A DNA stretch of 64,000 nucleotides from Verrucomicrobiia bacterium (GTDB lineage: Bacteria > Verrucomicrobiota > Verrucomicrobiia > Limisphaerales > UBA11358): assembly GCA_035546095.1 (NCBI GenBank), contig DASZXB010000073.1:21866-85865 (forward strand). The letters are read 5' to 3'. Below the pieces are notes generated by a model that did not search any database, was not told the DNA's origin, and was given only the letters and a program-made list of their open reading frames with translations. Positions within the stretch are counted from its first letter, which is position 1, and each line of letters begins with the position of its first letter. Shown here in pieces: positions 17,973 to 40,487 of the stretch. The translations under genes were made by a program, and so were the position numbers.

Positions 17973-18532
17973 GCGTCCAACTTCGATTTCAATTTTTCCA
18001 GCGGTAAACCGACGACGTTGTTGAATGAACCGGAAATTTCCGCAACGATTTCATCGCCGTGTTCCTGAATCGCATACGCGCCGGCCTTGTCGAGCGGATT
18101 GATTTGGGCTAAATAATCGGCGATTTGTTTTTCATCAAGCGCACGAAACGTCACGTCCGTGCTGACGGCAAAAAGTTTTTCGCGATGCGCGCGCAAATGA
18201 ATCAAGCTCACGCCGGTGATAACTTGATGCGTGTTTGCTTGAAGCTGCGACAACATATTCTTCGCTTCAGCCAAATCACGCGGCTTGCCGAAAATTTTAG
18301 TTTCAAGAAAAACCAGCGTGTCCGCGCCCAGCACGAGCGCATCGGGAATTTTTTTGGCGACGGCGCGCGCCTTGCGATGCGCGTTGAGCTGACACAATTC
18401 CAACGGCGAAAGATTCTCGTCAAATACTTCCTCTGCGTCACTCGGCACAATTTGAAAATCCACTTTTAATTGCCGCAACAATTCCGCGCGGCGCGGCGAC
18501 GCGGAAGCCAGAATGAGCGGCGGCAATTTCAC
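17957..18532 (-). CDS. maf: Maf-like nucleoside triphosphate pyrophosphatase
   Basis: 'LILASASPRRAELLRQL...GADTLV...GKP...AGAYAIQ'. I prefer the GTG start at 18532 because the longer ORF (to 18652) would overlap the divergent aroK. Confidence 0.8.
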   Translation of the reverse strand: MKLPPLILASASPRRAELLRQLKVDFQIVPSDAEEVFDENLSPLELCQLNAHRKARAVAKKIPDALVLGADTLVFLETKIFGKPRDLAEAKNMLSQLQANTHQVITGVSLIHLRAHREKLFAVSTDVTFRALDEKQIADYLAQINPLDKAGAYAIQEHGDEIVAEISGSFNNVVGLPLEKLKSKLDAWLKN

Positions 18533-18593
18533 GCGACAGTTTAGGGATGAATCCTCAATTGTCCACAAGCGCCAAATCTGATTTATTTGCGGT

Positions 18594-19127
18594 GTGAGCA
18601 ACCATCGCCATATCGCCAATATCGCGCTCATCGGTTTTATGGGCACAGGCAAAACGTCCGTCGGCCGCGTCGTCGCCGAGCAATTGCGCTTTGATTATCT
18701 CGACACCGATGAAATGATTCAGTCGGCGACCGGCAAAACCGTCGCGGACATTTTCAAAGCGGACGGCGAAACGGTGTTTCGGGCTCTGGAAAAAAAAGTC
18801 GTGGAAGAACTGTCAACGCGGAACAAAACCGTCATTTCCACCGGCGGCGGCTTGCCGACTAATCCACAAAATCTCGCCGATTTGAAATCGCACGCGTTGG
18901 TCGTCTGCCTGTGGGCGTCGCCGGAAAAAATCTGGGAACGTGTAAAAAACCAGACGCACCGTCCTCTGCTCCACGACGAAAATCCGCAAAAAAAAATCCG
19001 CGAATTGCTCGCTGTGCGCGAGCCATTTTACAAACAGGCGGACATTTTGCTGAACACGGAATTGCGCTCGTTGCGCGAAGTCGCACAGCAGGTCGTCCAT
19101 CAATTCCGGCTCGCCACGCAAACATGA
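18594..19127 (+). CDS. aroK: shikimate kinase
   Basis: 'IALIGFMGTGKTSVGRVVAEQLRFDYLDTDEMI' (P-loop and shikimate-binding DTD) and 'ISTGGG'. GTG start. Confidence 0.9.
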   Translation: MSNHRHIANIALIGFMGTGKTSVGRVVAEQLRFDYLDTDEMIQSATGKTVADIFKADGETVFRALEKKVVEELSTRNKTVISTGGGLPTNPQNLADLKSHALVVCLWASPEKIWERVKNQTHRPLLHDENPQKKIRELLAVREPFYKQADILLNTELRSLREVAQQVVHQFRLATQT

Positions 19128-20233
19128 AAGCGCAAATCCGAGCGCGGGCGTTGGAATTGGGCTTTGACGATTGCCGTTTCACTTCTGCAAATCCACCGCA
19201 CAGCGCGGAACAATTCCAAAAATGGATTACGGAAAAAAACTTCGGCGAAATGTCGTGGCTTGAGCGTAACGCCGAAAAACGGATTAAACCACAAAAAGTT
19301 TTGCTCGAGGCAAAGAGCGTGATTTGCCTGGTGATGAATTATTTCAAAAGCGATAAGCAGCAAGTGACAAGTGACAAGCAAACTGCAACTGGTCATTCAA
19401 CTCCCCTCATCCCGTCCTTCTCCTCGCTAAACGGGGAGAAGGTGTCCGAAGGACGATTGAGGGGCATTGTCGCTCGCTATGCGCGATTTGATGATTACCA
19501 TAACATTTTGTCTGAACGATTAAAATTACTCACGCAATTCATCAACGAAAGCGGCGGCGCGGAAGCCAAATCGCTTTGGTATGTGGACACCGGGCCGATT
19601 CTGGAACGCGATTTGGCGCAACGCGCGGGTATCGGTTTCGTCGGCAAACACACGAATCTTATCAGTCGCAAATCCGGCAACTGGATTTTTCTCGCGGAAA
19701 TCCTCACGACGCTTGAACTCGAACCCGACGCACCGGAGAAAAACCACTGCGGCAAATGCACACGTTGCCTTGACGCCTGCCCGACCAACGCCATCACCGC
19801 GCCGTTTGAATTGGATGCGCGCAAGTGCATTTCCTATCTGACCATCGAATTGAAAGGTTCGATTCCGGTTGAATTTCGTCGCGCCATCGGCAATCGCATT
19901 TATGGCTGCGACGATTGCCTCGCCGCTTGTCCGTGGAATAAATTCGCGCGCGAAGGCAATTTGATGAGATCGCATTTGCGAAAGGATTTGGAACAGCCGG
20001 ATTTGATTGAATTGCTTTCGCTCGACGAAATGAATTTCAAAACGCGTTTCGCCAATTCACCAATTCTACGGACGAAGCGGCGCGGGTTTTTGCGAAATGT
20101 CTGTGTCGCGCTTGGAAACATCGGTGACAAATCCGTTCTGCCGCATTTGCAAAAAGCCGCGAACGATTCGGAAGAATTGATTCGTGAACACGCGCATTGG
20201 GCGATTTCAGAAATCGAAGCGCGCGGTAAATAA
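19124..20233 (+). CDS. queG: epoxyqueuosine reductase
   Basis: 'CGKCTRCLDACPTNAI' and 'IYGCDDCLAACPWN' 4Fe-4S motifs, 'RYARFDDYH' and C-terminal HEAT-like repeats. ATGA overlap with the aroK stop. Confidence 0.9.
   Translation: MKAQIRARALELGFDDCRFTSANPPHSAEQFQKWITEKNFGEMSWLERNAEKRIKPQKVLLEAKSVICLVMNYFKSDKQQVTSDKQTATGHSTPLIPSFSSLNGEKVSEGRLRGIVARYARFDDYHNILSERLKLLTQFINESGGAEAKSLWYVDTGPILERDLAQRAGIGFVGKHTNLISRKSGNWIFLAEILTTLELEPDAPEKNHCGKCTRCLDACPTNAITAPFELDARKCISYLTIELKGSIPVEFRRAIGNRIYGCDDCLAACPWNKFAREGNLMRSHLRKDLEQPDLIELLSLDEMNFKTRFANSPILRTKRRGFLRNVCVALGNIGDKSVLPHLQKAANDSEELIREHAHWAISEIEARGK
19403..19464. repeat. GC-rich imperfect palindromic repeat embedded in frame in queG
   Basis: CCCCTCA (19403-19409) pairs with TGAGGGG (19458-19464), and CCTTCTCC (19416-19423) with GGAGAAGG (19435-19442). 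It translates as 'PLIPSFSSLNGEKVSEGRLRG'. Confidence 0.5.
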
Positions 20234-21588: not shown

Positions 21589-22587
21589 GTGCCGCGCAAG
21601 CCTAAATCCAGTTCCCAATACAAAATCCGCCGTAAGATTCCCGACCCCAAGTATTCGCTGGATGAGATTGTTCGTCCGCACGTCAGAAAATCCCCACGCA
21701 ATCCGCAAACCAAAGAACAGCTTGCCATTGCGCCCATTGAAAGCGTCTCGCCTGCCGAAGCGCAGCCGTTTTTGAAATGGGTCGGCGGCAAATCCCAGCT
21801 CCTCGCGCAGTTCGACGAATTTTTCCCGGCGAAGATTGACCGTTACGTTGAGCCGTTCATTGGCGGCGGCGCGGTGTTCTTTCACCTCAAACATCGCTTT
21901 CCGAAAATGAAGGCGTTTCTGCGCGATAACAACGACGAACTCATCAACACCTACGTCGCCGTGCGCGATTATCCGCGCGAACTCATGCACCGACTTGACC
22001 GGCATCTCAAGGCATTTCAGGCAAATCGTGAAAATTATTACTACGAAACCCGCAGCAAACACCATTTGCCAAAAAGTGAAACTGTGGAACGCGCCGCACG
22101 AATGATTTTTCTGAATAAAACCTGTTACAACGGCCTTTGGCGCGTTAATTCACGCGGCGAATTCAATGTCCCAATTGGCTCACACAAAAATCCGTCGCTC
22201 TACGATGAAGAAAATATTTTGGCCGCCAGCTATGCGTTGCGAGGCGTGCATTTGGACACGAAAGATTTCCGTGATGCTTTGGATGAAACTCGACGCGGCG
22301 AGTTTGTTTATATTGATCCGCCATATTTTCCCGTCTCGCCAACGGCAAGTTTCACTTCATACACTAAAGATGATTTCGGTGCAGAAGAACAACGTGAATT
22401 AGCTGCGTTGTTTGTAGCGGCGGCAAATCGCGGAGTTCATTTGATGCTTTCTAACTCTGACACTGATTTTATACGCAAACTGTATCGAAGATTTGCCACG
22501 CACATTGTGCGAGCGCGGAGAATGGTTAATTGTGATGGAACGAAACGAGGCGAAATAAACGAAGTCGTGATTTGCACAGAAGGTTAA
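21589..22587 (+). CDS. Dam-class (D12, alpha group) N6-adenine DNA methyltransferase
   Basis: 'FLKWVGGKSQL', 'EPFIGGGAVFF' (FxGxG) and 'VYIDPPY' (DPPY), in the Dam order. GTG start with a ~60-aa basic N-terminal extension. Confidence 0.85.
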   Translation: MPRKPKSSSQYKIRRKIPDPKYSLDEIVRPHVRKSPRNPQTKEQLAIAPIESVSPAEAQPFLKWVGGKSQLLAQFDEFFPAKIDRYVEPFIGGGAVFFHLKHRFPKMKAFLRDNNDELINTYVAVRDYPRELMHRLDRHLKAFQANRENYYYETRSKHHLPKSETVERAARMIFLNKTCYNGLWRVNSRGEFNVPIGSHKNPSLYDEENILAASYALRGVHLDTKDFRDALDETRRGEFVYIDPPYFPVSPTASFTSYTKDDFGAEEQRELAALFVAAANRGVHLMLSNSDTDFIRKLYRRFATHIVRARRMVNCDGTKRGEINEVVICTEG

Positions 22588-22590
22588 ATT

Positions 22591-23895
22591 ATGCCGATGG
22601 TAATGCCATTTGAAGAAGCGTGGGAGAAACTCGTGCGCGAGCGAGTTGATACCACTTTGGATTTAGTAACGTTGACAAAAGCCGACATCGAATCTGTCAC
22701 AGGTAATGAACTCCGATTGATGGCTAAGGTAGATTTTTCAGATGAACTGCCTGCTGCTTTGAAACGACATAGCTACTTCATTTTGCCCGTCAAAAATGGT
22801 GAATATGTTCTTGTGCGCGGAAATGGCTATCACACGCTTGAAAAGCTTCCAAAGCCGCCAACAATTTTTCGTCCGCAACTAGACTTTGAATTGGCAACTC
22901 TCAACGTTGGCGACAGTGAATCACAACATCTTGATTATAGTTTTCACATCGGCTTGGTTGAACGATTTGCTAACGTAACTGGCTTGCGCCAAACAATTCG
23001 TGGACGAAAAAGAATGCCAGCAATTGATTTTCATGTCGGTCAAGTTGGGCCAATCAAAGTAAAAACTGGTGTTCAAGTTGAAGTGGACTTGGGATGTGAA
23101 GGGCGCGAAGACATTTTGCTCATTGAGGCAAAAAATGGCGAGCCAACTGATTTCATCGTGCGGCAATTATTTTATCCATATCGCAAATGGCGATTGGAAA
23201 TTCCGCAAAAGCGAACTCGGCCTTGGTTTTTTTGTTCGACCAAAGTTGCCAACAAGCGGCTCTACAAATTTTGGGAATATGAATTCACCGATGATGACCA
23301 GTATCAATCACTCAAACTCATACAAGGCGAATCGTTTCTGATTGAGCCAAACCGGAAACGACTGACGGTGGATGAGTTGTTGCGTGTCCATGTCGCGGGC
23401 AAAGCCAGACGCGAATTTTGGAACGTGCCGCAGGCGGATGCGTTTTGGCGCGTGGCGGAAATACCGTTGCTCGTCGCGCAGGGCATTGATACAGCGGGGA
23501 AAATAGCGGCGCATTACGAATTTGACCCACGCCAAAGTAGTTATTACCGACAAGCTGCCGAATTTCTTGGCCTTGTCACTTCAGACAAAACACATCATTA
23601 CGTTTTGACTGATTTGGGACACGAATATGCCAATCTTCCCGCCGACGAGCGGCGGCAGTTGCTGGCGGGCATTCTCGCGCATTTTCCGCCGATGCGTGCC
23701 GCGTTGGAAACGCTAGAACGCGCGGGCAAACGCGAGGTGAGCAAACGGGAAATCGCCGCGTTGCTGGAACGTCATTCGCAAATCCGTGCCAGCACACCCA
23801 GTCGCCGCGCTTCGACGATTTTGGCGTGGCTGCAATGGCTGCAATCCAACACAGGCGCGGTGCGGGCAACTCAACTGGGTTTTACCATTCAGTAG
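22591..23895 (+). CDS. putative type II restriction endonuclease (PD-(D/E)XK candidate plus C-terminal winged-helix-like region)
   Basis: It starts 3 nt after the methyltransferase stop. 'VEVDLGCEGREDILLIEAKNG' fits D-x13-E-x-K. I recognise no family. Confidence 0.5.
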   Translation: MPMVMPFEEAWEKLVRERVDTTLDLVTLTKADIESVTGNELRLMAKVDFSDELPAALKRHSYFILPVKNGEYVLVRGNGYHTLEKLPKPPTIFRPQLDFELATLNVGDSESQHLDYSFHIGLVERFANVTGLRQTIRGRKRMPAIDFHVGQVGPIKVKTGVQVEVDLGCEGREDILLIEAKNGEPTDFIVRQLFYPYRKWRLEIPQKRTRPWFFCSTKVANKRLYKFWEYEFTDDDQYQSLKLIQGESFLIEPNRKRLTVDELLRVHVAGKARREFWNVPQADAFWRVAEIPLLVAQGIDTAGKIAAHYEFDPRQSSYYRQAAEFLGLVTSDKTHHYVLTDLGHEYANLPADERRQLLAGILAHFPPMRAALETLERAGKREVSKREIAALLERHSQIRASTPSRRASTILAWLQWLQSNTGAVRATQLGFTIQ

Positions 23896-24755: not shown

Positions 24756-25136
24756 ATGAAAATTTATGGTTTCATCATCGCGACGGTCGGCCTCGCGCTG
24801 TGCGGTTGTGATCAACTGTCGGACGACGGCGTGCATCTGGCGGAATGTCTGAAGGCTGGCGCGCAGACGTTGCGGCAGAGCGCGGACACGGAATTGACGG
24901 TGGCGTTCGAGCCGCTGGATGGAACGAACCAGATTTATACGGTGCAATTCTGCAAGGACAGCGCGGTGGTGGTGTGGAGCAAACACGGCGGGTCGAGCAC
25001 GTATCAATTGAATTACGTGGCGTTGCCAAAGGATTTTTATCTGCACAAGACGAACGAGGCAACGTTTGTGACGTTGCGCAAAAACGGTCCGAGCCGGACT
25101 GGCGAGGAGCGGATTGACGTGGTGGACGCGCGATGA
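24756..25136 (+). CDS. small lipoprotein (hypothetical)
   Basis: Lipobox 'VGLALCGC'. Only the last 126 codons of the long track ORF 23826-25136 are plausible. Confidence 0.5.
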   Translation: MKIYGFIIATVGLALCGCDQLSDDGVHLAECLKAGAQTLRQSADTELTVAFEPLDGTNQIYTVQFCKDSAVVVWSKHGGSSTYQLNYVALPKDFYLHKTNEATFVTLRKNGPSRTGEERIDVVDAR

Positions 25137-25164
25137 TTTCGCCGCGTGAATCAGAAATGCAGCA

Positions 25165-25797
25165 TCAATTCGGGGAAATGACGTGAAACGTGCCGTTGGA
25201 TTTCACTTCCACATCCAGACTGGCATAGATGCTTTCAGCGGAGATAATTCCAACGGGATTTTGTTTTAGATCGTCCAATTGTTCCTGAAGCGCCATCGGA
25301 TTGTTGAATTTTCGCTCCACCACGACCCGTTCGGCGACATCGCGGCGAAAACGATTTTCCAAAAGTGCGTAGTTTTTGTTCGCTTCAGTCAAACCGGCTT
25401 CAGTCAAAGCAACTTGCTTCATGAGAGCGGTGACTTGATTGGTCAAGTCCACGATGTTTCCGCTTAACTTTTGGTTTTCCGATTGGATTTCCGCGATTTG
25501 CCGGGTGAGGTTGGTGATTTGTTCCGAACCAAGCTGAATGGCGGATTGAGCTTCAACCAGTTGATTGGAAAACGCGGATGATTCCGAGCGCGCCTGATCG
25601 AGCTTGTTGGAAAACACGGCAATCGTTCCCTGCCCTATGGCGATTTGCGTTTGGGCGGAGTCCAGACGATTTGAAAAATCGGTGATTGCGCCGATGTCCG
25701 TTTGATGCTGCGCATTGTCGCCGCGTTTGCTCACGATGAGCGCGACAACCAACGCGACGCAGAGAATTGCGAAAGCCGTGGACCAGTATTGTTTCAT
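25165..25797 (-). CDS. membrane-anchored coiled-coil protein (hypothetical)
   Basis: N-terminal TM helix 'TAFAILCVALVVALIV', then repeated 'FSN.LD.A' heptad-rich sequence. Confidence 0.5.
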   Translation of the reverse strand: MKQYWSTAFAILCVALVVALIVSKRGDNAQHQTDIGAITDFSNRLDSAQTQIAIGQGTIAVFSNKLDQARSESSAFSNQLVEAQSAIQLGSEQITNLTRQIAEIQSENQKLSGNIVDLTNQVTALMKQVALTEAGLTEANKNYALLENRFRRDVAERVVVERKFNNPMALQEQLDDLKQNPVGIISAESIYASLDVEVKSNGTFHVISPN

Positions 25798-25949
25798 CCG
25801 ACAAAGATTTTTTCCATACCCGCGATTCAATCAAGCTCTCAACTGTTACAAATCTATGACGAAGCAGCGATGGAATAAAGCAGGATTTGTTCACGATAAA
25901 CCAGAAATTGAAAGGCATCGCCAAATTACAACCCAATGCGCAACGCCAT

Positions 25950-26546
25950 TTATTCCGGCATCTTCATCAACTCTTCGCCGGTCATCGGTTGCGGATGACC
26001 GCCGAGCGCGGCGCGCACGCCTTTGACATCGTCCGGCGTCACTTCACTGGCTTTGTTGCCCCAGGAATTGCGAACATAGGTCAGCACTGCGGCCAGATCG
26101 GAATCCGAAAGCGCCGCGCCCATCGCCGCCATGGACATATTCCAGTCCTTGCCTTCAACGCTAATGCTGCCGGAGATACCGGTGAGCGGAATGTGAATCA
26201 GGCGTTTGGTACCTTTGGCGTTGACCCATTCGGAACCGGCCAGCGGCGGCGCTTGTCCGGGCTTGCCCAAACCGTCCGCGCCGTGACACGCGCCGCAAAT
26301 CATCTCGTAATTGCGTTTGCCCTGCGCGAGCATGGCTGCCGCGCCGGATTTCGGCTGATACGCGTCCAGTTGTTCGGCGTTGGCGTAAGGCGCATAAACC
26401 TGCGCATTGAACCAGCCGCTGTGATGGTCAAAATAAACCGCGCCGAGAAACAGGAACAGCAGCAGCAAAGAGAAAATCCACATCGGCACGGTCGAAGCTT
26501 TCGTTTCGCCAGGCGTCGCGGATGGATTTTTAGGTTCGTCGCTCAT
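25950..26546 (-). CDS. membrane-anchored monoheme class I cytochrome c
   Basis: One TM helix plus 'CGACHGADGLG' and a distal Met region. ATGA overlap with the upstream gene. Confidence 0.8.
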   Translation of the reverse strand: MSDEPKNPSATPGETKASTVPMWIFSLLLLFLFLGAVYFDHHSGWFNAQVYAPYANAEQLDAYQPKSGAAAMLAQGKRNYEMICGACHGADGLGKPGQAPPLAGSEWVNAKGTKRLIHIPLTGISGSISVEGKDWNMSMAAMGAALSDSDLAAVLTYVRNSWGNKASEVTPDDVKGVRAALGGHPQPMTGEELMKMPE

Positions 26547-27271
26547 TTGGTCAAACTTGGCGGGGTGAACGGCGCGTCATACAACGGCACATCGGCGCGC
26601 AGGCTCAACAGATATGCCACCAGATTTTTGGCGTCTTCGGTCGGGATGACCTCGCCATTTTTTGTTTCAAACAGAAAACGGAACGGCGGCATGACGGAAT
26701 CCTTCACTCTGGATTTCGGGTCGTAAAGATGCGCGAATTCCCAAGCCGCGTCGTAACGCAATCCGATGTTCGCCAAATCCGGCCCGACACGGATGCTGCC
26801 AAGCTGCACCGGATCATCCCATAGAAAATCCTCGGCGACGCTGCGGCGGATGCCCCAGCGCGGAATATCCGAACCCGTGGCAATGATATGCGTCTCAGAT
26901 TTGCCACCGGCGGCAGTAATTTTGCCAGCGACGGAATCCGCTTCGTCTTTCGTGAGTCCGGTCAGTTTCAACGTAGAAACCAGATTGGAAACCACTTCGG
27001 GATTTTTTCCGGCGCTGGTCAACACGACGTCGCACGCAAATCCGCTTTGCTGAACTTGCGTGGTGTGACACGCGGCGCAGCCGAGCGAGCGATAGACCTG
27101 CAAACCCAGAGCGGCGTTTCCGGGACGTTGGAGCGGATAAATCTCGGACGAATTCAAAATTTGCGTCTGTTTGGCCGCACCCAATTGCAGCGCGGGTGCG
27201 AGCACAAAACCGCACCACGACGCGCCGAGCGCGATGAACGCCGCGACAAAAACCCGGAAACCGCTTTTCAT
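26543..27271 (-). CDS. CcoO (FixO)-like monoheme cytochrome c subunit
   Basis: 'GCAACH' and 'GPDLANIGLRYDAAWEFAHLYDPKS...SVMPPF' parallel the CcoO blocks 'GCVGCH' and 'GPDLARVGGRYSDDWH..HLYNPR...SKMPSY'. Confidence 0.8.
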   Translation of the reverse strand: MKSGFRVFVAAFIALGASWCGFVLAPALQLGAAKQTQILNSSEIYPLQRPGNAALGLQVYRSLGCAACHTTQVQQSGFACDVVLTSAGKNPEVVSNLVSTLKLTGLTKDEADSVAGKITAAGGKSETHIIATGSDIPRWGIRRSVAEDFLWDDPVQLGSIRVGPDLANIGLRYDAAWEFAHLYDPKSRVKDSVMPPFRFLFETKNGEVIPTEDAKNLVAYLLSLRADVPLYDAPFTPPSLTK

Positions 27272-28692
27272 GATTTCACCTCCGCGGTTTCCAGCGGTGC
27301 TTTCACGGCAGTGAGCAATGATTTAAGCAACGCCAGTTTCCATTTCAACGTCATGACAAAAATGTTCGCCGCCAGCAATAAACTGCCGAGCAGCAACAAC
27401 AAAATGCCCATCGTGCTGACGCGCAAAAACGGCAATTGAGTTTGAAAATCAAAATTATTCAATCCTTGTTTGATACCGCCGACGGCCAAAGACACCACCA
27501 GCAACGCGACACCGAGCATGAACAGCCAGTGTTGCAGGCGGACGAATTTCGGGAACGGCAATTCAAAATCCATCACGCGCGGCAGCAATTCATAAATCGC
27601 GCCGCAAATGACGATGGCGAAGAAGCCGAAAATCTGCAATTGCGTCTGCGCCGAGGTAAACCAAGTAAATCCCACAACGCGGCTGAAATGCGAACATCCG
27701 GTCGCAAGCAACAACACGCTCGATAAGAGAAAGGCAACTGTCCCAAATTTGATGTAACAAAATGGTCCGCCTTTGCATTGAACATTTGCGCCGCAAACAG
27801 TTTTGCCATAAACGACGGCGATGGCGATGAGCGGCAGAATCGTCAACAACGAGCCGACGAAACTTAATGCGGGCAGCCATGCTGGCACCGGCGCGCCTTG
27901 CGGAATGCCCAGCCATGTCCCGAACAGCATCAACGTCCAAAACGCGAATAGTGCGAAGTAATTTGGCAACGATTTGCCGGAAAATTTCGGCAGGAAATAA
28001 AATGCGATGCCGAGACCGACCAGCGCGAACCAGATGAACAACAGATTGTTCGCGAACCACCAGGCGATGACGGCTTGCGCGACGCCGCGCACGGGCCACG
28101 CGACCAGAAACAAATTCACCGTGGAATAAATCCACGGAAACCAAAACAGCGCGGCGAGCAAAAACCAATGCGCCGGTTGCAATTCCCGATTGCGCCGCGC
28201 GCCAAATGTGGCGACAGCGGAAATGGCAATGAGCACAAACGCGGCGAACAAAAGAACCGAACCGCCGCGCGGAAATTCGAGCCACTGAAAGCCCGTGCTG
28301 TCGCCAATCAAAATTCCGACAATACCGACAAACACGCCGAGATGCCAGATGTTCGCGGCAATAATCGGCACGAGCGGCAAAAACAATTCCGTCTCACTCA
28401 AGCGCGCAAAAATCCAGAGGATGACGCCGAGCGCGGCGGGAATGCAAAAGCCATAAACAATCGCGTCGTTGGCGGCGGGCTGCAGGCGTCCGTAAGTGAA
28501 CCACGCGCAATTTCCGAATTTCTCCGGCATATGAAACGTGAGCGAGGCAATCAGCGCGAGCAGCAAACCGACGATCAGCCACAACGCCGCGCCGCCGAAC
28601 AGTGCGAGCAACGGCACGCGACAGGATGCGTCAATGCGGCTCGCGGGGACGCTCGCCCCACCAGAAATTTCAGAATGTTCGTTTTCGTTCAT
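27268..28692 (-). CDS. CcoN-like (cbb3 oxidase subunit I homologue) membrane protein lacking the canonical His ligands
   Basis: The 474-aa protein is collinear with CcoN. 'YGRLQPAANDAIVYGF', 'AWWFANNLLF..FYFLPK' and 'FTSAQTQLQIFGFF' correspond to 'FGRLRPLHTNAVIFAF', 'WWYGHNAVGF..YYFVPK' and 'GHVHAGALGW'. No His occurs between residues 176 and 334. Confidence 0.8.
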   Translation of the reverse strand: MNENEHSEISGGASVPASRIDASCRVPLLALFGGAALWLIVGLLLALIASLTFHMPEKFGNCAWFTYGRLQPAANDAIVYGFCIPAALGVILWIFARLSETELFLPLVPIIAANIWHLGVFVGIVGILIGDSTGFQWLEFPRGGSVLLFAAFVLIAISAVATFGARRNRELQPAHWFLLAALFWFPWIYSTVNLFLVAWPVRGVAQAVIAWWFANNLLFIWFALVGLGIAFYFLPKFSGKSLPNYFALFAFWTLMLFGTWLGIPQGAPVPAWLPALSFVGSLLTILPLIAIAVVYGKTVCGANVQCKGGPFCYIKFGTVAFLLSSVLLLATGCSHFSRVVGFTWFTSAQTQLQIFGFFAIVICGAIYELLPRVMDFELPFPKFVRLQHWLFMLGVALLVVSLAVGGIKQGLNNFDFQTQLPFLRVSTMGILLLLLGSLLLAANIFVMTLKWKLALLKSLLTAVKAPLETAEVKS

Positions 28693-29069
28693 TCAAATTG
28701 GCTCGGTTTCTCCGGTTGTTTGGGCGCGGGCGCAGCGGCGCGTTCGGCGCGCGCGTTCAAATCAACCCGGGCTTGCGCGGGATTTTTCCATTTCTGCGCG
28801 GCGAGTTGCAGCGCGGTGTCAATCGGCAATCGCACGATGCCGCGCGACTGGTCAACCCAACCGACGGTTTCAAACGACGCGATTTCGTTGGTGTGAATTT
28901 CGTGCAACGCCTGCGAAATCGCCGTGGCGCGGTCAGCGTCAATGGCCGGAGTATTCGTCGAAAATTTCACAATCACGACCAGCACGATGAAAATCAAACT
29001 GGCGATGATGAAACCGATTGCCGCGCCGGACGCGCGATTTATTTTTATCAAATCCTGTTCGTCGCTCAT
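28689..29069 (-). CDS. 126-aa single-TM protein (hypothetical), coupled between actF and the CcoN-like gene
   Basis: TM helix 'AAIGFIIASLIFIVLVVIV'. 4-nt overlaps with both neighbours. Confidence 0.55.
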   Translation of the reverse strand: MSDEQDLIKINRASGAAIGFIIASLIFIVLVVIVKFSTNTPAIDADRATAISQALHEIHTNEIASFETVGWVDQSRGIVRLPIDTALQLAAQKWKNPAQARVDLNARAERAAAPAPKQPEKPSQFE

Positions 29070-30307
29070 TGCGCGCCTCCTTCCACCGGCAGCGTGTCCG
29101 GCATTTCATCAGGCTCATGACCGATGCCCATCGCTTCGAGCACGCGCGGGTCGCGTTGCGGATATGGCGGATGGCTGCGGAATTTTTTCAGGAACACGTG
29201 CGCCAGCAATCCAGCCATGAACGCAAACGTGCCGAAGTGCAGCCAAATCCATTTGAACGGATAATTGTGCGGATGCAACACGGGCAAAACATTGAACGCC
29301 AAATCCGCGAAATTCATCAGCCATGCCCACGCGCAAATCGGAATCATGATTTTGAAATTCATTTTGACGTGCGCCGGCAACAGCAAAACAAAGGGCAGAA
29401 AAAAGTGGCCGAAAATCAGCGCCATGCTCACCCACCACCACGAACCATTTTCGCGGATGAGATAAAAATATGTTTCCTCCGGCACGTTGCCGTTCCAGAC
29501 GACGAAGTATTGCGCGAATTCAAAATAAGCCTGCAACAACGTGAAGGCAAAAAAGAGCACGCCGAGAAAATAGAATTGATTGTCGTGCAACACGGGAGTC
29601 AAAATCCGCTGGCGTTGCAAAACCGCCGTGAGTATGTAGATGGTGGCCAGCGCAATCCAGCCGCACGAAGCAAACATATACAGGCCATACATCGTTGAAG
29701 ACCATTGGTATTCAAGCGAATTCATCCACAAAATCGGCGCGACGGTGACGGTGGCGGCGAAAGCCAGAATGCCCCAGCCGGAATGAAAACGCATTTTGCG
29801 CGTGCAAAGCGCATCGCCGGTCACATCCTGTCGCAATGACCAATAATTGATGCGCGCAGTCAACACCCACCAGATGCCGAAAAAGATGGCCGACGCGACG
29901 CAAAATCCCGGCAACGTGAACAAAAATCCTTTGGCGCTCACCGCACGGTCGTCCACCGGACTCAATGTCATCCACGGATAAATTTTTGACGCCAGCAAAA
30001 TGACCGGAATGAATAAAATGGCCAGCCACGGAAACAACAGCGAACCGATATGTTCACAAATCCGGCGCGTGGCGACCGACCAGCCGGCATCGGTCAAATG
30101 ATGGATGATGGCGAAAAACAATGCGCCCAGCGATAGCGTCAGGAAAAACAGGAACGACAACAGCCAGGCGTAGCCGAATTCGCGCGGGCTGGCGATGAGG
30201 CCGATGACCGACAGAATCGCGCCGATCACCATGAACACGACGGGCAGCTTGCGCCAGCCGGACAAATCCAGCGGCGGCGGCAATTCAGTTTTGTTTTGCG
30301 AACTCAT
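29066..30307 (-). CDS. actF: alternative complex III subunit ActF (polytopic membrane subunit)
   Basis: ~10-TM protein in the ActF position, directly after the monoheme ActE. Confidence 0.7.
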   Translation of the reverse strand: MSSQNKTELPPPLDLSGWRKLPVVFMVIGAILSVIGLIASPREFGYAWLLSFLFFLTLSLGALFFAIIHHLTDAGWSVATRRICEHIGSLLFPWLAILFIPVILLASKIYPWMTLSPVDDRAVSAKGFLFTLPGFCVASAIFFGIWWVLTARINYWSLRQDVTGDALCTRKMRFHSGWGILAFAATVTVAPILWMNSLEYQWSSTMYGLYMFASCGWIALATIYILTAVLQRQRILTPVLHDNQFYFLGVLFFAFTLLQAYFEFAQYFVVWNGNVPEETYFYLIRENGSWWWVSMALIFGHFFLPFVLLLPAHVKMNFKIMIPICAWAWLMNFADLAFNVLPVLHPHNYPFKWIWLHFGTFAFMAGLLAHVFLKKFRSHPPYPQRDPRVLEAMGIGHEPDEMPDTLPVEGGAQ

Positions 30308-30308
30308 T

Positions 30309-30971
30309 TTATTTCAACGCAGCTTGTTGTTGCGGCGATAAATCATTGGTCGAACCGAGCCAGCTTAATTGCAGCGCGCGCAAATACGCGACAATCGCCC
30401 AGCGGTCTTGCGCCGGAACAATCGGGCCATACGCGCCCATCGTGCTTTTGCCAAACGTGATGGTGTTGAAAATCTCGCCGTCGGCCATTTCCACGATGCG
30501 TTTGTCGTGCAGATTCGCAACTGCCGGCATGACACCAATTTTTTTGGTGATGCCGTTGCCGTCGCCGAGTTTGCCGTGACATGGCGCGCAATAAATATCG
30601 AAACGCTCGTGGCCACGCGCGAGCAATTCTAAATTCACCGGCAATGGATTCGTTTCCACAAAATTGGTCGTGCCGGTGATTTTGCCGGTATTGACCGGCG
30701 AATCTTCAAAGGAATACACCGCGCCGTTCACGGATTGAATCGGCTCGCTGCGCGCAACGGTTCCGGACGGCGGCAATTGCGAACTGATTCCGTTCGGCAT
30801 GAAATCGAACGGCTTTTGCGGGCGCAATTTCAACTGGCGATCCATGTCGGGAAAAACTTCAATCGGCGGTTTGCGCGACAATTCGCCACGAAAGCCGGCG
30901 ATGCCGACAATGGCCGCGCCGAGCGCCGCACCGACGAGACCGAGCGAAATGAGATGGCCGAGGTAGCGCAT
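30309..30971 (-). CDS. actE: alternative complex III monoheme cytochrome c subunit ActE
   Basis: N-terminal anchor and 'CAPCHGKLGDGNG'. In the expected position after ActD. Confidence 0.8.
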   Translation of the reverse strand: MRYLGHLISLGLVGAALGAAIVGIAGFRGELSRKPPIEVFPDMDRQLKLRPQKPFDFMPNGISSQLPPSGTVARSEPIQSVNGAVYSFEDSPVNTGKITGTTNFVETNPLPVNLELLARGHERFDIYCAPCHGKLGDGNGITKKIGVMPAVANLHDKRIVEMADGEIFNTITFGKSTMGAYGPIVPAQDRWAIVAYLRALQLSWLGSTNDLSPQQQAALK

Positions 30972-31510
30972 CAGTCGTTGTCCTCCACGAGTTCGATGTG
31001 CGCGCCGCCGATTTCTTCCAGCAGTTTGCGGGTTTCAGTTTCGGAAAATTTCGGGTCCAATGCGCCGATGACGAGGAAAAATTTGTCGCGTGAAACGAGT
31101 TCAAACCGTTTCTTGCCGAACAGCGGATGATGATGGCGCGGCAATTGATTGAGCGCGACCATCCCGATGAACGCGCCGAGCGCGGCGGCCAACACGAGCA
31201 AAATATACGACGGCACGACTGACATCGGCACACTGAACATCGGCTTGCCACCGATGAGAATCGGATAGTCAAAGGTGTTGCAATACCAAATCAATCCCAT
31301 CGTGCCGATAAATGCGCCCGCGCCGAACACGAGCGAAAACGCGCCGACTTTGGAATTTTTGAATCCCATCACTTTGTCCAAACCGTGAATCGGGAACGGC
31401 GAAAAAACGTCCCAGCGATGATAGCCGGCGTCGCGCACTTTTTCCGCCGCGCTCAAAATGGAAGCCGCCGAATCGAATTCCGCGATGAGGCCGTAAGTTT
31501 TTGCGCTCAC
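30971..31510 (-). CDS. actD: alternative complex III membrane subunit ActD (DUF3341)
   Basis: 'YGLIAEFDSAASILSAAEKVRDAGYHRWDVFSPFPIHGL' is the DUF3341 pattern. The GTG start at 31510 overlaps the actC stop. The longer track ORF is a spurious extension. Confidence 0.8.
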   Translation of the reverse strand: MSAKTYGLIAEFDSAASILSAAEKVRDAGYHRWDVFSPFPIHGLDKVMGFKNSKVGAFSLVFGAGAFIGTMGLIWYCNTFDYPILIGGKPMFSVPMSVVPSYILLVLAAALGAFIGMVALNQLPRHHHPLFGKKRFELVSRDKFFLVIGALDPKFSETETRKLLEEIGGAHIELVEDND

Positions 31511-32919
31511 GATTTGCCTCCTTTCGCAACCGGATGCGGATTGGCCTGTGGCGTGACCGCTTTGACTTCCGAAACCGGAATCATTGGCAGGAAACGCACG
31601 AACAACAAATACAACATGAAAAATGCGCCGAGCGTGCCGAGGTAAACGCCCGCGTCCACCCACGTCGGGTAATAAACGCCCCAGTTGGCCGGCAGAAAAT
31701 CCTGATAGAGCGAACCGACGATGATGACAAATCGCTCGAACCACATGCCGATGTTCAACAACAAGGCAATGATGAAAACCACCAAAAGATTTTGCCGGAC
31801 TTTTTTGATCCAGAGCAATTGCGGCAGCGAGGCGTTGATGCAAATCATAATCCAGCCGCCATACCAGTATTGGTGGCCGAACATGCGATGGCCGAAAACC
31901 CACGAGTCGTAAGGATTGCCGGAATACCATGCGATGAAAAATTCAATCACGTAAATGTAACCCATGATGCAGGCCATCATCAGCGTCATTTTGCAAATCT
32001 TGTCAATGTGCGCCATCGTAATGATGTCTTCGAGATGGCACCATTTCCGCAGCGGAATCAACAGCACCAGCACCATGCCGAAGCCGCAGCACACCGCGCC
32101 GGCGACGAAATAGAACGGGAAAATCGTTTCGTGCCAGCCGGCAATTTGCGCCGTGGCGAAGTCCATGCCGACGATGGAACTGACGGTGAACACCAGCAAC
32201 GTCGCCAACCCGGACAACACGAGATACGCTTTTTCGTAATTGTGCCATTGTCGCGCCGAGCCAGTCCAGCCGAGCGCGAACAAACCGTAAAGGAATTTTT
32301 TCACGCGCGTTTTCGAGCGGTCGCGCATCAACGCCAAATCGGGAATCAAACCCATATACCAAAACGTCGTCGAGACGATGAGGTAAGTGTTGACGGCGAA
32401 AACGTCCCACATGAGCGGCGAACGGAATTGCGGCCAAAGGCCGTTTGAGGTCGGCACCGGAAACATGAACCAGTCGAACCACTCGCGTCCGACGTGAATG
32501 GCCGGATACATTCCCGCCATCGCGACCGAGAAAACGGTCATCGCTTCCGCCGCGCGACCAATCGGATTGCGCCAATGCTGCCGTGTCAGAAATAACATCG
32601 CGGAAATCAAAGTGCCCGCGTGCGCGACACCGACCCACCAGACGAAATTGATAATGTCCCAGCCCCACATGACCGGCGCGTTATTACCCCACACGCCGAC
32701 GCCGACCGAAATTTTGTAAATCAGCGAAACTGGCAAAATGACCGCTGCGCCAAACGCCGCCGGCAAAAACAAAACCCACCACCACAACGGCGTTTTGCCC
32801 TCGTTAAACGCCGTGAGTTTATCGGTCAGCCAGCCGAGGCTGCGATTCGGCACAGCTTCCATGCGTCGCAATTCCGCCGGCGGCGCGAGTGATTCCAGAT
32901 TGGTTACGGATTCAGCCAT
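31507..32919 (-). CDS. actC: alternative complex III NrfD/PsrC-like quinol-interacting membrane subunit ActC
   Basis: 470 aa, ~10 TM helices, NrfD-like. Immediately follows actB. Confidence 0.85.
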   Translation of the reverse strand: MAESVTNLESLAPPAELRRMEAVPNRSLGWLTDKLTAFNEGKTPLWWWVLFLPAAFGAAVILPVSLIYKISVGVGVWGNNAPVMWGWDIINFVWWVGVAHAGTLISAMLFLTRQHWRNPIGRAAEAMTVFSVAMAGMYPAIHVGREWFDWFMFPVPTSNGLWPQFRSPLMWDVFAVNTYLIVSTTFWYMGLIPDLALMRDRSKTRVKKFLYGLFALGWTGSARQWHNYEKAYLVLSGLATLLVFTVSSIVGMDFATAQIAGWHETIFPFYFVAGAVCCGFGMVLVLLIPLRKWCHLEDIITMAHIDKICKMTLMMACIMGYIYVIEFFIAWYSGNPYDSWVFGHRMFGHQYWYGGWIMICINASLPQLLWIKKVRQNLLVVFIIALLLNIGMWFERFVIIVGSLYQDFLPANWGVYYPTWVDAGVYLGTLGAFFMLYLLFVRFLPMIPVSEVKAVTPQANPHPVAKGGKS

Positions 32920-35900
32920 TAACTGTTTCCTTTCTCGGCGGCGTGAAATTCTCCGCCGCGATTTTCATATTCCTCCATGCTGTAAGGCGCGTGATAATCC
33001 GGCATCGCCGGATTCGGATTGCGAACGCGCGCCAAATAAGTCGTGCGCGGTTTCGTCAGTAATTCGCCGAGCACGGAATAATTGCGCGGCTGCGATTTCC
33101 ATTTTGAAACCGTGCTGTCCGAGTCGCTGATGTCGCCAAAGACAATCGCGCCCGCCGGACATGCCTGCTGGCACGCTGTTTTGGGAATTGTGCCTTCCGA
33201 TTCCTTCAAGCGAATGTTGCCGCTCGCGCCGGCTTTCACTTTTTGCGCGATTTCCGCCTGCTGAATGCGCTGGACGCAATAGGTGCATTTTTCCATCACA
33301 CCGCGCATCCGCACCGTCACGTCCGGGTTCTTGACCATCTTGATCAAATCCCATTCGTCTTCCTCGCGCATTCCACTCGCTTCCGGCGCTTTGAACCAGC
33401 TTAACAAATCCCATTTGCCGTCCGTTTTATTCAAAAGCGGCGTTGGATAAAACGGTCCTTTCAGCGCGCTGGCCGGACGTTTGCTGTAATCGAAATAATT
33501 GAACCGGCGAACTTTGTAAGGGCAATTGTTCGAGCAATAACGCGTGCCGATGCAACGATTGTAAGTCATCACGTTGAGGCCTTCCTCATCGTGCGACGTG
33601 GCGTTGACCGGACAAACGTTTTCGCACGGCGCGGCTTCGCACATCTGGCAAAGCATCGGCTGGCTCACCGCCTGCACATCGTCAATCCATTCCGCGAATT
33701 GCTGCTCCGCGTCAGTCTGGTTCATGTCCGCGTTCGGATCAAACAAGCTGCGATTGTTTTGCCGTTTCGGGTCGCTCGTGTAATAACGGTCAATCCGCAG
33801 CCAGTGCATTTCGCGACCACGACTGACCTGATCTTTGCCGACAATCGGAATGTTATTTTCGCTCTGGCACGCGACCACGCAGGTGTTGCAGCCAACGCAC
33901 GAATTCAAATCCACGACCAAACCCCATTGATGCAACGCTGTTTTTTTCGCCTCATCGAACGGATTCGGATAAAGTGATTTGACGACCGGCGGTTCTTTGT
34001 CGTGCATTTCCTGCGCGAAATCAGGATTCTTGGAAAATTCTTCGAGATTCGCCTCGCGCACCGCCGGACGACCTTCCATGCTCCAATGCGATTGCGTCGT
34101 CGCAATCACATAAGTCTCGCCGGTCTTTTTAATTGCCGCACCCGTCTCGATATATTTGCCGGAGAAAATTTTGTAAGCGTTGAACCCGACACCCGTGCCG
34201 ACGCGCCCGGCGCGTTCGCGACCGTAACCCAGCGCGAGTCCCAGCGAATAATCCGCCATGCCCGGCTGCGTCCAAATCGGCCCTTTGACACTTTTCCCGT
34301 TCAACGAAATCTCAACAATATCGCCGTTTTGCACGCCAAGTTCACGCGCCGTTTTGCGGCTGACGAGCACCGCGTTGTCCCAAGTGATTTTCGTGACCGG
34401 GTCGGGCAATTCCTGCATCCAGCCGTTGTTTGCGTAACGGCCATCGTCCACTTTCGCATCGCGGAAGAAAATGACTTCGAGATGGTCTTTTGAAACAGGC
34501 ACGGTTTTTTCCCTGCTTGCCTTCGCCAATTCAATGGCGATATTCCGTGTCTGACCCAGAAGAGAAGCGTTCGCAAGACTCGCTTTGCCATCCGAATTAA
34601 ATCCGTTAAACAAAAATTTCTTCCAGCTTTCTTCCGAGCCGCCAAAAGTTGCCTGAACAATTTCGTAAGGATTTGTTTGTGATTCGCCGGCAACACGCGC
34701 CAAAAATTCCAATTCCGTCAGTCCGCCAAACAATGGCTGAATCAACGGTTGAATTGGAACAAGCGTGCCGTCACTCGTCGTTGCATCGCCCCACGATTCT
34801 AAATAATGCGCGGCGGGAAAAAAGAAATCGCTAATTACCGAAGTTTCGTCTTCGTAATAACCAAACTGAATAACAGTATTTGGTTTCGGTGTGTTTCCAT
34901 CTCCCAAACCTTTGGGAAAACCGTCCAAATTGTAAGTTGGATTACTTCCAAGGACGACGAGCGTTTCTACATTTGTATGATTGAGCAATTCCAAATCTGC
35001 GGAAGAATTTTCTTCCGCTGAAATCAAAGTCACCGTATTGCCAATCGCGCCGAGCGCAGAATTGATGGCGTGAGCGAGCAGATGAACTTCCAGCGGCTGA
35101 CGCTGACCGGCAACGACCAAAGCATTTTTTCCTGCTGCAACCAAATCTTTTGCACACTCAGAAATCCATTTGGCACCAGTTTTACCTCTAACGGCTGCTG
35201 GGGTCACATCGTTGTCACGCGGCCAAACTGAATGAGCCAATTCGGCATTTACCCGACTGCCAATTGCGAAACCGATTTCTTTTGCGATCTGAAAAATTTC
35301 GCTCGCCGCCACGCGCAACCGATGATCCGCATTCGCGCCGGTCAAAGTGAACAGCGATTCGACCGAATAAAGCCGGCTCATCCCCTCGCCCGCCTTGCGG
35401 CCTTGGGCAAATTTGCGGATGTGATTGTGCGCGTCGTCTTCCGTGCCGAGAAAATCGCAGTCGAGCGACAAAATGACTTTCGCCTTGTCGAAATTGAAAA
35501 TCGGTTTAACCGGCTGGCCGAATGCCTGCGTCGCCGCGCGTTGATGAATGCCGGAATCAATCGCGTCGTAAGTGAACCATTTTGATTGCGAGAATTTCTG
35601 CGCGATGATTTTTTGCAGCCGCGCGCGCGAAGGCGACGTGCTGCTTTCCGCCAGAAACGCCAAACCTTCGCCCTGATTCGCAGAAAATTTTTGCGACAAA
35701 TCATCAAGAAATTTCAATGCTTCCTCGCGCGAAACCGTTTTGCCGTCTTTGGCAAATCTTTTGGCGCGGTCGGGGTCGTAAAGATTCAGGATTGAAGCCT
35801 GCGCGTAACGGTCAGTGCCGCCGTTGCTGCCGGGGAAAAGTGAATTGCCTTCAATCTTAATCGGACGGCCATCGTAAGATTTGACGACGAGCGGAATCGC

Positions 35901-36221
35901 GCCGGTGCGCGTGGGCATTGCTGTCGCGTAATACTCCGGTTTGCCGTAAATATAATCGGGCTGCGGCTGTTGGCCGAACGGTTCTAATTTTTCTTCCGGT
36001 CGCCGACAGCCCGCGCCAAGTGTCGCCACACCGGCAAAGGCAAACGACGCGGCCATGATTTTTAGAAAATGACGACGATTCTGCCCGTCCAACTCGCTTG
36101 CGCCTTGCGGAAATTCGCGATGCAACCATTCTTTGAACTCCGGCGTGTCCGCCAGTTCATCCAGACTGCGCCAATAACGGCGGCCATTTGCGTTTGTCGG
36201 AGTTGTGGGAGTTGAATTCAT
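32919..36221 (-). CDS. actB: alternative complex III subunit ActB (molybdopterin-oxidoreductase-like domain fused to a 4Fe-4S ferredoxin domain)
   Basis: Tat signal '[16 protein letters not shown]'. The C-terminal half carries '[15 protein letters not shown]', '[14 protein letters not shown]' and '[12 protein letters not shown]'. The ATG at 36221 overlaps the actA stop. Confidence 0.9.
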
Positions 36222-36886
36222 TATCTGTGACAGGCCGAACAGCTTTGCAATGATTGCACTTTCCAGTCGTGAACGAATTTCGCGCCGTTGACTTCCTGCA
36301 TGTGCGCGGCTTTGACGGGATCGGAATTCCATTTCCAGCCCAAATCTGTGACTTTATCCGTCGGACGGATGTGCGCCGCCGGATCGCGATGGCAATCCAG
36401 ACAAAAACTCATGCTGAACGGTTTGGCGTGATAAACTTCGTCCATTTGGTCAATGCGACCGTGACATTCCACGCAACTGATACCGCGCGCGACGTGGACG
36501 GCGTGATTGAAATAAACGTAATCCGGCGTGATGTGAACCTGCACCCACGGAATCGGCGTGTTGTTCGTGGCGCTTTCACGGACGATGGCCAGTCGCGGGT
36601 CGTCCTTCAAAACCTGACTGTGACAATTCATGCACGTTGACGCCGACGGAATGTTCGCCACCCAAGTCTTGTCCACCATGCTGTGACAATAGCTGCAGTC
36701 AATTCCCAGTTCGCCCGCATGAACTTTGTGGGAAAAGGGCACCGGCTGCACCGGCTCGTAACCGACGCGCGTGTATTTGGGCGTGAAATAATACCAAACG
36801 CCCGCCGTCACAGCGCCACCCGTCAGCATCGCTCCGATGAGCAACACCAACGGCAACCAGTTTGTCCACTTCGGAAAAATTGACAT
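36221..36886 (-). CDS. actA: alternative complex III pentaheme cytochrome c subunit ActA
   Basis: Five CxxCH motifs (CSYCH, CMNCH, CVECH, CLDCH, CSACH) after an N-terminal TM helix. Confidence 0.9.
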   Translation of the reverse strand: MSIFPKWTNWLPLVLLIGAMLTGGAVTAGVWYYFTPKYTRVGYEPVQPVPFSHKVHAGELGIDCSYCHSMVDKTWVANIPSASTCMNCHSQVLKDDPRLAIVRESATNNTPIPWVQVHITPDYVYFNHAVHVARGISCVECHGRIDQMDEVYHAKPFSMSFCLDCHRDPAAHIRPTDKVTDLGWKWNSDPVKAAHMQEVNGAKFVHDWKVQSLQSCSACHR

Positions 36887-37000
36887 TGCGAACGCCGCCG
36901 CGCGGCGAATCCTTCAATTAAAATCCCGACACAGCTTGAATTTAGAATCCGTGTCGCGGCAGATACTAAATAAATTGCCGTCCGGCTCGCAAGAAAAGTT

Positions 37001-37016
37001 TGTGAAAAATTTCACG
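37001..37016. promoter_or_regulatory. CRP/FNR-family-like palindrome TGTGA-N6-TCACG
   Basis: It matches the CRP consensus TGTGA-N6-TCACA at 9 of 10 positions. It lies in the divergent intergenic region between actA (36886, minus strand) and the gene at 37105 (plus strand). Confidence 0.3.
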
Positions 37017-40471: not shown

Positions 40472-40487
40472 TCTTCTCCGGGACTCA

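Follow-up and report, generated by a model that had tools for sequence, protein, structure and literature searches.

Can the catalytic subunit of a heme-copper oxidase shed the ligands of all its metals and still be kept as a protein? This question is raised by a gene in a 64,000-nucleotide stretch of DNA (the window, analysed in full) from contig DASZXB010000073.1 of a soil bacterium of the class Verrucomicrobiia, order Limisphaerales. The gene encodes a relative of CcoN, subunit I of the cbb3-type oxidases, and lies in one operon with the genes of alternative complex III (ACIII). We find that this CcoN-like open reading frame (ORF) is a full-length, 12-helix homologue of heme-copper oxidase subunit I, that none of the six His columns that hold the cofactors of CcoN is filled, and that an intact, conserved CcoN in this degenerate state is common to at least 140 related species. 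We consider it probable, at roughly 0.6, that the protein is a cofactor-free descendant of CcoN that scaffolds two c-type cytochromes as the electron output of ACIII.

Fold and ligand positions of the CcoN-like protein

A first-pass annotation, made from the letters of the window, had placed the ORF at 27268-28692 with a product of 474 aa. Both hold; the gene is on the minus strand, which is a correction. The annotation had also proposed that the product is collinear with cbb3 subunit I, and this was borne out by profile, sequence and structure comparisons. Pfam COX1 matches residues 30-412 with 93.7 bits (cutoff 34.8), and phmmer aligns residues 36-449 with the C-family CcoN of P. stutzeri (3mk7 chain A) at E=3e-20. 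The score against the NCBIfam CcoN equivalog, TIGR00780, is 103.3 bits, well under the cutoff of 583.15. An AlphaFold2 (AF2) model, for which 57 relatives served as input, has 12 long helices, a mean predicted local distance difference test score (pLDDT) of 89 and a predicted template modelling score (pTM) of 0.89. The top Foldseek matches of this model are the cbb3 CcoN chains 3mk7, 8smr and 6xkw, at template modelling (TM) scores of 0.82-0.85, and the model is closer to cbb3 CcoN than to cNOR (TM 0.77) or to the ba3 and aa3 oxidases; its TM score to the P. stutzeri cbb3 oxidase is 0.83. The CcoN-like protein and P. stutzeri CcoN thus share the 12-helix fold, run collinearly over ~415 residues and have many Trp, Gly, Pro and Arg residues in common. 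In public NCBI and JGI records, degenerate proteins of this kind are named 'cbb3-type cytochrome c oxidase subunit I/II'.

In P. stutzeri CcoN, H60 and H347 bind heme b, H345 binds heme b3, and H207, H257 and H258 bind CuB, with Tyr251 cross-linked to H207. The ligand columns of the CcoN-like protein were read in two alignments, by phmmer and by MAFFT, which agreed. H60 aligns to A74, H207 to N215, H257 to P264, H345 to Q349 and H347 to Q351, and H258 falls inside a 2-residue deletion at the HH motif. None of the six columns holds a His in either alignment, in agreement with the claim of the first-pass annotation that all heme and CuB His ligands are lost. Its readings of the motifs at these sites (PAAND, WWFANN, GIPQG and AQTQ) are correct, and its list of the His residues in the protein (6, 54, 117, 175, 335 and 388, with none within residues 176-334) is exact. 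Its reading of the Tyr position as Phe was mistaken: Tyr251 aligns to G258, and the Phe is the adjacent residue 257.

The loss extends beyond the ligands, as is seen when 81 canonical CcoN sequences are compared with 128 degenerate representatives (clusters at 50% identity). The six His, Tyr251, R57, R437, T215, Y223, S240, Y317 and H337, in P. stutzeri numbering, are conserved at 98-100% in the canonical set and are lost or variable in the degenerate set. Tyr251 is present in 100% of the former and 0% of the latter, and Arg57 and Arg437, which we take to be heme-propionate partners, are 99-100% conserved in canonical CcoN and gone in the degenerate set. T215, Y223, S240 and Y317 presumably form the single proton-input pathway of the P. 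stutzeri oxidase; the window's protein has A223, F231, A247 and F321 at these columns. Replacements in the ligand columns vary by lineage across the degenerate clade (A, F or Q at H60; L, Q or R at H345; Q, L or M at H347), so that no substitute ligand has been fixed. What the two sets have in common is mostly Trp, Gly, Pro and loop Arg, which are typical of fold and packing.

Glycines near the former cofactors have changed as well. Among the 21 positions that are at least 90% Gly in canonical CcoN, four (G211, G349, G441 and G324) have turned bulky in the degenerate proteins, with side chains that average 116-148 cubic angstroms instead of 60. Of these, G211 is one helical turn away from H207, G349 from H345 and G441 from R437. 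Glycines that did stay conserved (e.g. G54, G67, G116, G195, G391 and G403) are still at least 88% Gly in the degenerate set. Such a pattern is to be expected of cofactor cavities that have become filled. These sequence comparisons support the view that the CcoN-like protein is catalytically dead, and they suggest that bound heme and copper are absent from it.

Distribution, intermediates and selection

The His-less state is shared by the relatives of the window's gene. All 120 of the closest database homologues (67-87% identity), from many independent metagenomes and metagenome-assembled genomes (MAGs), have no His in the six columns. Because these homologues come from independent samples, a sequencing or assembly artefact, a possibility that the first-pass annotation had raised, is excluded. 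A first locus scan, with one genome per species, gave 183 genomes with relatives, of which the best 80 were examined. Nearly all of these 80 belong to Verrucomicrobiota, in the Limisphaerales/subdivision 3 group, and the ten-gene order of the operon is kept in all 80 loci as far as the contig extends. In a second scan, with more distant members (37-60% identity to the query, 74 loci), all hits were again verrucomicrobial MAGs, and these had the same operon of ten genes. A family profile gave 1884 matches among 1.84 billion cluster representatives, 420 of them below 1e-30; the best 150 are essentially all without the ligands, with three canonical and a few partial sequences among them. When the CcoN sequences of the fetched loci were deduplicated and sorted by the His ligands that they keep, 126 had none, 14 had one, 4 had two and 79 had all six, giving 144 distinct sequences with 0-2 of the six. 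Carriers of the degenerate form include L094, a MAG labelled Pedosphaera, and OY969416.1. Many contigs whose operons are clearly verrucomicrobial or planctomycete (e.g. L002, L003, L012, L103, L163, L168 and L214) bear the titles Bifidobacteriaceae, Bordetella, Akkermansia, Alcaligenaceae or Arcobacter. Such MAGs were probably labelled or binned wrongly, and taxon counts based on record titles are therefore unreliable.

The nearest canonical CcoNs come from the same superphylum (e.g. Telmatocola sphagniphila WP_213498146.1). In a third locus scan, the same operon was found with a canonical CcoN (HHYHHHH) in Opitutales, Chthoniobacteraceae, other Verrucomicrobia and Kolteria novifilia, and also in Gemmataceae, Pirellulales, Phycisphaerales and Tepidisphaerales; the 126-aa gene of the operon, described below, is present in some of these. 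Acidobacteriota and Myxococcota have canonical ccoN-ccoO-cytochrome c genes without ACIII. That ACIII can adjoin a C-type oxidase was already known from verrucomicrobial methanotrophs and Opitutaceae (PMC8498564, citing Refojo 2010). Because Planctomycetes, Opitutales and further Verrucomicrobia have this operon with a canonical CcoN, the degenerate form is the derived one. In a neighbour-joining (NJ) tree, the degenerate CcoNs form one 134-tip clade nested among verrucomicrobial ACIII-linked canonical CcoNs, with partial forms near its base. A single origin of the degenerate clade is likely and not proven, because the NJ tree has no bootstraps.

The partial forms indicate how the sites may have been dismantled. 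An Opitutales protein (P0164, MEX2381372.1) keeps R57, H60, H207, H345, H347, G349, R437 and G441 and has lost Y251, H257, H258 and G211; both heme sites are kept and the CuB site is lost. Three other proteins (L225, 10001-11491; L171, 695-2284; and P0222) keep H60, H347, R57, R437 and G441 and have lost H345 and the three CuB His, leaving the low-spin heme b site alone with its Arg and Gly partners. The fully degenerate forms, including the query, keep none of these residues. Ligands and second-shell partners vanish together, which supports a real, stepwise loss of cofactors, and the series suggests that CuB was lost before heme b3 and heme b3 before heme b.

The first-pass annotation had held that the gene is not decaying and had proposed a search of related genomes for His-less orthologues under purifying selection. 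Such orthologues were found. The ORF is full length and intact in 77 extracted loci, the ten-gene operon is conserved in 144 distinct loci, and the ratio of nonsynonymous to synonymous substitution rates (dN/dS), estimated by the method of Nei and Gojobori (NG86), is 0.05-0.3 in the closest pairs. Close pairs of ActF, ActE and the CcoO-like gene of the same operon fall in the same range. Between the window and L001, dN of the CcoN-like gene is 0.075 and dS is 0.60, a ratio of 0.125. The median dN/dS over all usable pairs is 0.27 for the CcoN-like gene, 0.25 for ActF, 0.24 for the CcoO-like gene and 0.26 for the cytochrome c. At equal divergence of ActC, the identity of CcoN is 0.38-0.42 between degenerate and canonical proteins, compared to 0.49-0.60 between degenerate proteins and 0.54 between canonical ones. 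The larger degenerate-canonical divergence indicates a burst of change in the CcoN-like protein at the transition, followed by renewed constraint.

The ACIII operon, its c-type cytochromes and other oxidases

The operon comprises ten co-directional genes, with the CcoN-like gene in eighth place; their order is ActABCDEF, 126-aa protein, CcoN-like, CcoO-like and cytochrome c (Table 1). The assignment of the act genes to ACIII, made from subunit matches to 6f0k and from the Pfam ActD and NrfD profiles, is firm. ActC and ActF are only marginally similar by BLASTP (E=0.017), and ActF was therefore assigned by a search of the PDB. ActA and ActB meet at TAATG, ActC and ActD at GTGA; ActB and ActC share one base, as do ActD and ActE, and ActE and ActF are separated by 1 nt. 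From ActF through the terminal cytochrome c, four ATGA overlaps follow in succession. The mechanical ORF list over-extends two of these genes: ActB, to 36332, where the true start is likely the ATG at 36221 in the TAATG with the ActA stop, and ActD, to 31930, where the likely start is the GTG at 31510 in the GTGA with the ActC stop.

Table 1. Genes and features of the ACIII operon in the window, in the order of transcription
Feature	Position	Strand	Description
ActA	36221..36886	minus	pentaheme cytochrome c, first gene of the operon; N-terminal membrane helix; five CXXCH, Cytochrome_C7/c3
ActB	32919..36221	minus	molybdopterin-like B1 and Fe-S B2 domains; phmmer 6f0k_B E=4.6e-224
ActC	31507..32919	minus	NrfD-like membrane subunit; Pfam NrfD 60.6 bits
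ActD	30971..31510	minus	Pfam ActD 191.7 bits, residues 146-313 of the long ORF
ActE	30309..30971	minus	monoheme cytochrome c; Pfam Cytochrome_CBB3/Cytochrom_C; one CXXCH in 70/70 orthologues
ActF	29066..30307	minus	second NrfD-like membrane subunit; R. marinus 6f0k_F E=6.8e-56; also 6lod_F, 8k9e_F, 6btm_F
126-aa protein	28689..29069	minus	one predicted membrane helix, no Cys; 4-nt overlaps with ActF and the CcoN-like gene
CcoN-like gene	27268..28692	minus	474 aa, ATG start; identified by COX1, phmmer, AF2 and Foldseek
CcoO-like monoheme cytochrome c	26543..27271	minus	N-terminal helix, CAACH, SVMPPF Met motif; Pfam FixO 72.5 bits
CcoO-like insertion	aa 75-136, ~nt 26864-27049	minus	~56 aa directly after the heme motif; split alignment to PDB CcoO chains
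Terminal cytochrome c	25950..26546	minus	198 aa, membrane-anchored monoheme, CGACH, weakly CcoP-like; Pfam Cytochrom_C/Cytochrome_CBB3

The 4-nt overlap that the first-pass annotation had described at either end of the CcoN-like gene is ATGA at both junctions. Its identification of the neighbours was right for the CcoO-like gene with its CAACH motif and wrong for the other: the further cytochrome c follows the CcoO-like gene, and the overlapping neighbour upstream is the single-helix, Cys-free protein of 126 aa. This protein has no match in Pfam or NCBIfam, even at E up to 1. A homologue lies directly upstream of the CcoN-like gene in 80/80 and 73/74 degenerate loci of the first and second scans, and homologues also occur in several canonical ACIII-cbb3 operons of planctomycetes and Verrucomicrobia. 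The 126-aa protein may be an ActG-like or otherwise unrecognised accessory subunit. In the same two scans, an ActF homologue is found upstream of the CcoN-like gene in 79/80 and 72/74 loci, and an ActA homologue in 51/80 and 51/74, wherever the contig reaches. The proposed linkage to ACIII is thus upheld by translational coupling and by synteny that is invariant wherever contigs reach. Together, the synteny and the 4-nt overlaps suggest that the CcoN-like protein is physically in complex with ACIII. A promoter and terminator scan of positions 25000-38200 gave counts at chance level.

The two cytochromes downstream appear to stay redox-competent, as judged from their heme motifs. A CXXCH is present in 72/72 orthologues of the CcoO-like protein (in single copy in 71 and double in one), which also retains its Met motif, and one CXXCH is present in 59/59 orthologues of the terminal cytochrome c. 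The latter scores 29.6 bits, under the threshold, against TIGR00782 (ccoP). The CcoO-like protein has also gained an insertion. The spacing between CXXCH and GPDL is 45-57 residues in 71/71 canonical operons and 99-133 residues in ~136/146 degenerate operons; the insertion is accordingly found in ~136/146 of the latter and 0/71 of the former. AF2 models the CcoO-like protein poorly as a whole (pLDDT 61) and the insertion confidently (pLDDT 79-91), as a beta-alpha-alpha-beta unit; the interpretation covers the insertion only. The top five Foldseek matches of the insertion are C-terminal domains of ribosomal L7/L12, at E=0.04-0.6, which is not significant, with a best TM score of 0.54 and 26% identity. 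Its sole Pfam match is Ribosomal_L12, at a sub-threshold 18 bits. The modelled insertion may therefore be called L7/L12-like as a resemblance only, a lead and not a finding.

Other terminal oxidases were found in relatives; the 64-kb window itself encodes no other oxidase. In L021, the strand of the degenerate operon also encodes an A-type subunit I (COX1, 444 bits), ~3 kb downstream. The region of L021 at 13024-19176, directly after the operon, holds genes on that strand for a cupredoxin-like protein, CtaB, A-type CtaD, CtaE/COX3 and CtaF/COX4, and no gene in it could be recognised as a CuA subunit II. The cupredoxin-like protein has a type-1 copper motif and a CarboxypepD_reg-like domain. 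CtaD motifs occur at the same relative position in L075/L154 as in L021, L121 has a CydA motif, and in L080, L133 and L142 an A-type CtaD is on another contig of the same MAG.

Elsewhere in the window, the plus strand at 21589-23895 encodes a D12-class N6-adenine DNA methyltransferase and, immediately after it, a protein with DUF6996, DUF6997 and DUF7226; the two are possibly a pair for restriction-modification or defence. Unconnected to the CcoN-like gene are two large Reg_prop/Y_Y_Y histidine kinases (11557-14592, minus; 57030-60101, plus) and a 779-aa protein with a C-terminal FTR1 iron permease domain (40443-42782, plus).

Possible roles of the degenerate subunit and their meaning

On the reading that we prefer, the ancestor of Planctomycetes and Verrucomicrobia would have carried an operon in which a functional cbb3 oxidase came straight after ACIII, itself a quinol:cytochrome c oxidoreductase. 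One large lineage of Verrucomicrobia (subdivision 3, Limisphaerales/Pedosphaera-like) would then have lost the cofactor sites, in the order CuB, heme b3, heme b, and kept the protein. The 12-helix CcoN-like protein would be a membrane scaffold that stably holds the CcoO-like and CcoP-like heme-c subunits, and these two would serve as the output wire of ACIII instead of the input wire to an oxygen-reducing centre. Electrons would leave the c-hemes for another terminal acceptor, most plausibly an A-type heme-copper oxidase, and it is probably by an A-type oxidase that oxygen is reduced in the carriers. The proteobacterial cbb3 oxidases need CcoN for the stable assembly of CcoO and CcoP, which provides a reason to keep the scaffold. 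The retention of the gene would fit a lineage that needs the two CcoN-dependent c-type cytochromes, or one in which ACIII itself depends on the CcoN-like protein.

A protein that has lost all its catalytic residues and scores 103 against a TIGR00780 cutoff of 583 might instead be a decaying pseudogene or an artefact of assembly or sequencing. This explanation is effectively refuted by the intact ORF in 77 loci at low dN/dS, by the same His-less state in the 120 close homologues from independent samples, by the fold-defining residues that the 128 divergent representatives keep, and by the 4-nt overlaps with both neighbours. Also quite improbable is a CcoN-like protein in which unconventional ligands hold a heme or metal, so that it continues to act as a redox enzyme or electron carrier. 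Intermediate relatives do appear to keep one or two heme sites, and the query's subfamily conserves His 54, 117, 175 and 388 and the Cys pair 306 and 312. H54 is not new, since it is equally conserved in canonical CcoN. H117, H175, H388, C306 and C312 are invariant or nearly so in the query's subfamily only; neither the degenerate clade at large nor canonical CcoN conserves them. The three His do not co-occur across the clade and, by our reading of the model's helix assignment, lie in different helices and at different depths. A new site built from the query-specific His was rejected as a candidate, H54 being ancestral and the remaining His not co-occurring. R57 and R437 are lost, the cofactor-facing Gly are now bulky, and the replacements in the ligand columns vary freely across the clade, all of which speaks against a surviving cofactor site. 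The C306/C312 pair is in a predicted cytoplasmic loop between helices 8 and 9.

Two further explanations accept a cofactor-free protein and differ on what it is kept for. By constructive neutral evolution, the assembly or stability of ACIII would have come to need the CcoN-like protein, with no electron relay, and the c-type partners would be dispensable relics or have unrelated roles. We rank this first among the rivals and still find it unlikely. It suits the invariant, translationally coupled operon linkage and the conserved residues, which are mainly structural Trp, Gly, Pro and Arg, and ACIII already has a cofactor-less module in the B1 domain of ActB (PMC5928083). Against it, the heme motifs of the CcoO-like protein and the cytochrome c are present in every orthologue, under the same purifying selection, and the CcoO-like protein has gained a conserved new domain; these features argue for an active periplasmic role. 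Unlikely too, and placed just behind it, is a new non-redox membrane function coupled to ACIII, such as ion or proton conduction, quinone or lipid binding, or sensing. The burst of sequence change followed by renewed constraint would be expected of such a function, and the polar residues N103, N289, T293, Q406 and E125 persist in both the degenerate and the canonical set; the query's subfamily also has invariant His and Cys residues. However, the ancestral proton-pathway residues are now Ala, Phe or Gly, and no new intramembrane polar residue is conserved across the whole degenerate clade. The retained polar residues are probably structural, because they are equally conserved in canonical CcoN.

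Several observations weigh against a cofactor-free scaffold and electron relay of single origin. A canonical sequence, P0244, falls inside the degenerate clade of the unbootstrapped NJ tree, and a single origin is therefore not secure. An alternative oxidase was seen in 5 genomes only, which speaks for its availability and not for its universality. The unexplained invariants H117, H175, H388, C306 and C312 could form an unseen site, and the absence of heme and copper is itself read from sequence. A bolder form of the proposal, which we think rather doubtful as a whole, is that an entire clade of abundant soil and freshwater Verrucomicrobia has converted a catalytic heme-copper oxidase subunit to a metal-free structural protein, with the order of cofactor loss still recorded in living intermediates. 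Beyond a scaffold role, the L7/L12-like domain and the CcoN-like protein may on this view have created a new output module of ACIII, which could dock another acceptor or have a new non-redox membrane function.

Parts of this system are familiar. The gene order is identical to that of the verrucomicrobial and planctomycete ACIII-cbb3 cluster, and the CcoN-like gene is followed by a ccoO-type gene and then by a CcoP-like cytochrome c gene, as in cbb3 operons. In contrast, CcoN of the ACIII-cbb3 cluster has the six His and the Tyr, and its CcoO has no insertion; here the core appears dead and the insertion is part of the CcoO-like protein. Core 1 and core 2 of mitochondrial complex III are inactive relatives of processing peptidases that serve as structural subunits. 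They resemble the role proposed for the CcoN-like protein in that a dead enzyme homologue is kept in a respiratory complex, and differ from it in being of unrelated fold, soluble on the matrix side and eukaryotic. The B1 domain of ActB has a molybdoenzyme fold without a prosthetic group (PMC5928083), and is likewise a catalytic-subunit fold that was kept for a structural purpose within this family of respiratory complexes. Its fold is different, and it is periplasmic and universal in ACIII, whereas the CcoN-like protein is membrane-embedded and confined to one lineage. The gNOR enzyme, with one His replaced, was called the first exception to the heme-copper His signature in a 2024 survey (Murali et al. 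2024, PMC11214002). The CcoN-like protein, unlike gNOR, has lost all six His plus the channel. Full-text literature searches, and papers on Melioribacter, Nitrospina, Ferrigenium, Acidobacteria and Limisphaera, yielded no account of a His-less CcoN. Known already are the fold and the ACIII-cbb3 operon; the conserved, apparently metal-free state, the intermediates and the CcoO insertion appear to be new.

If the cofactor-free reading is true, this would be, as far as we have found, the first pseudo-enzyme described in the heme-copper oxidase superfamily. The six metal-binding His are treated as the invariant signature of these oxidases, and a large clade under purifying selection that has none of them would be evidence that the fold can outlast its chemistry. 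With the partial forms, there would be a natural series for studying the dismantling of a respiratory enzyme. How ACIII hands over its electrons is still debated, and the operon suggests a dedicated, membrane-anchored output module of two c-type cytochromes. The presence of cbb3 genes is routinely taken as evidence of high-affinity, microaerobic respiration. For subdivision-3 Verrucomicrobia, which are dominant in soil and peat, the inference of high-affinity respiration would be wrong.

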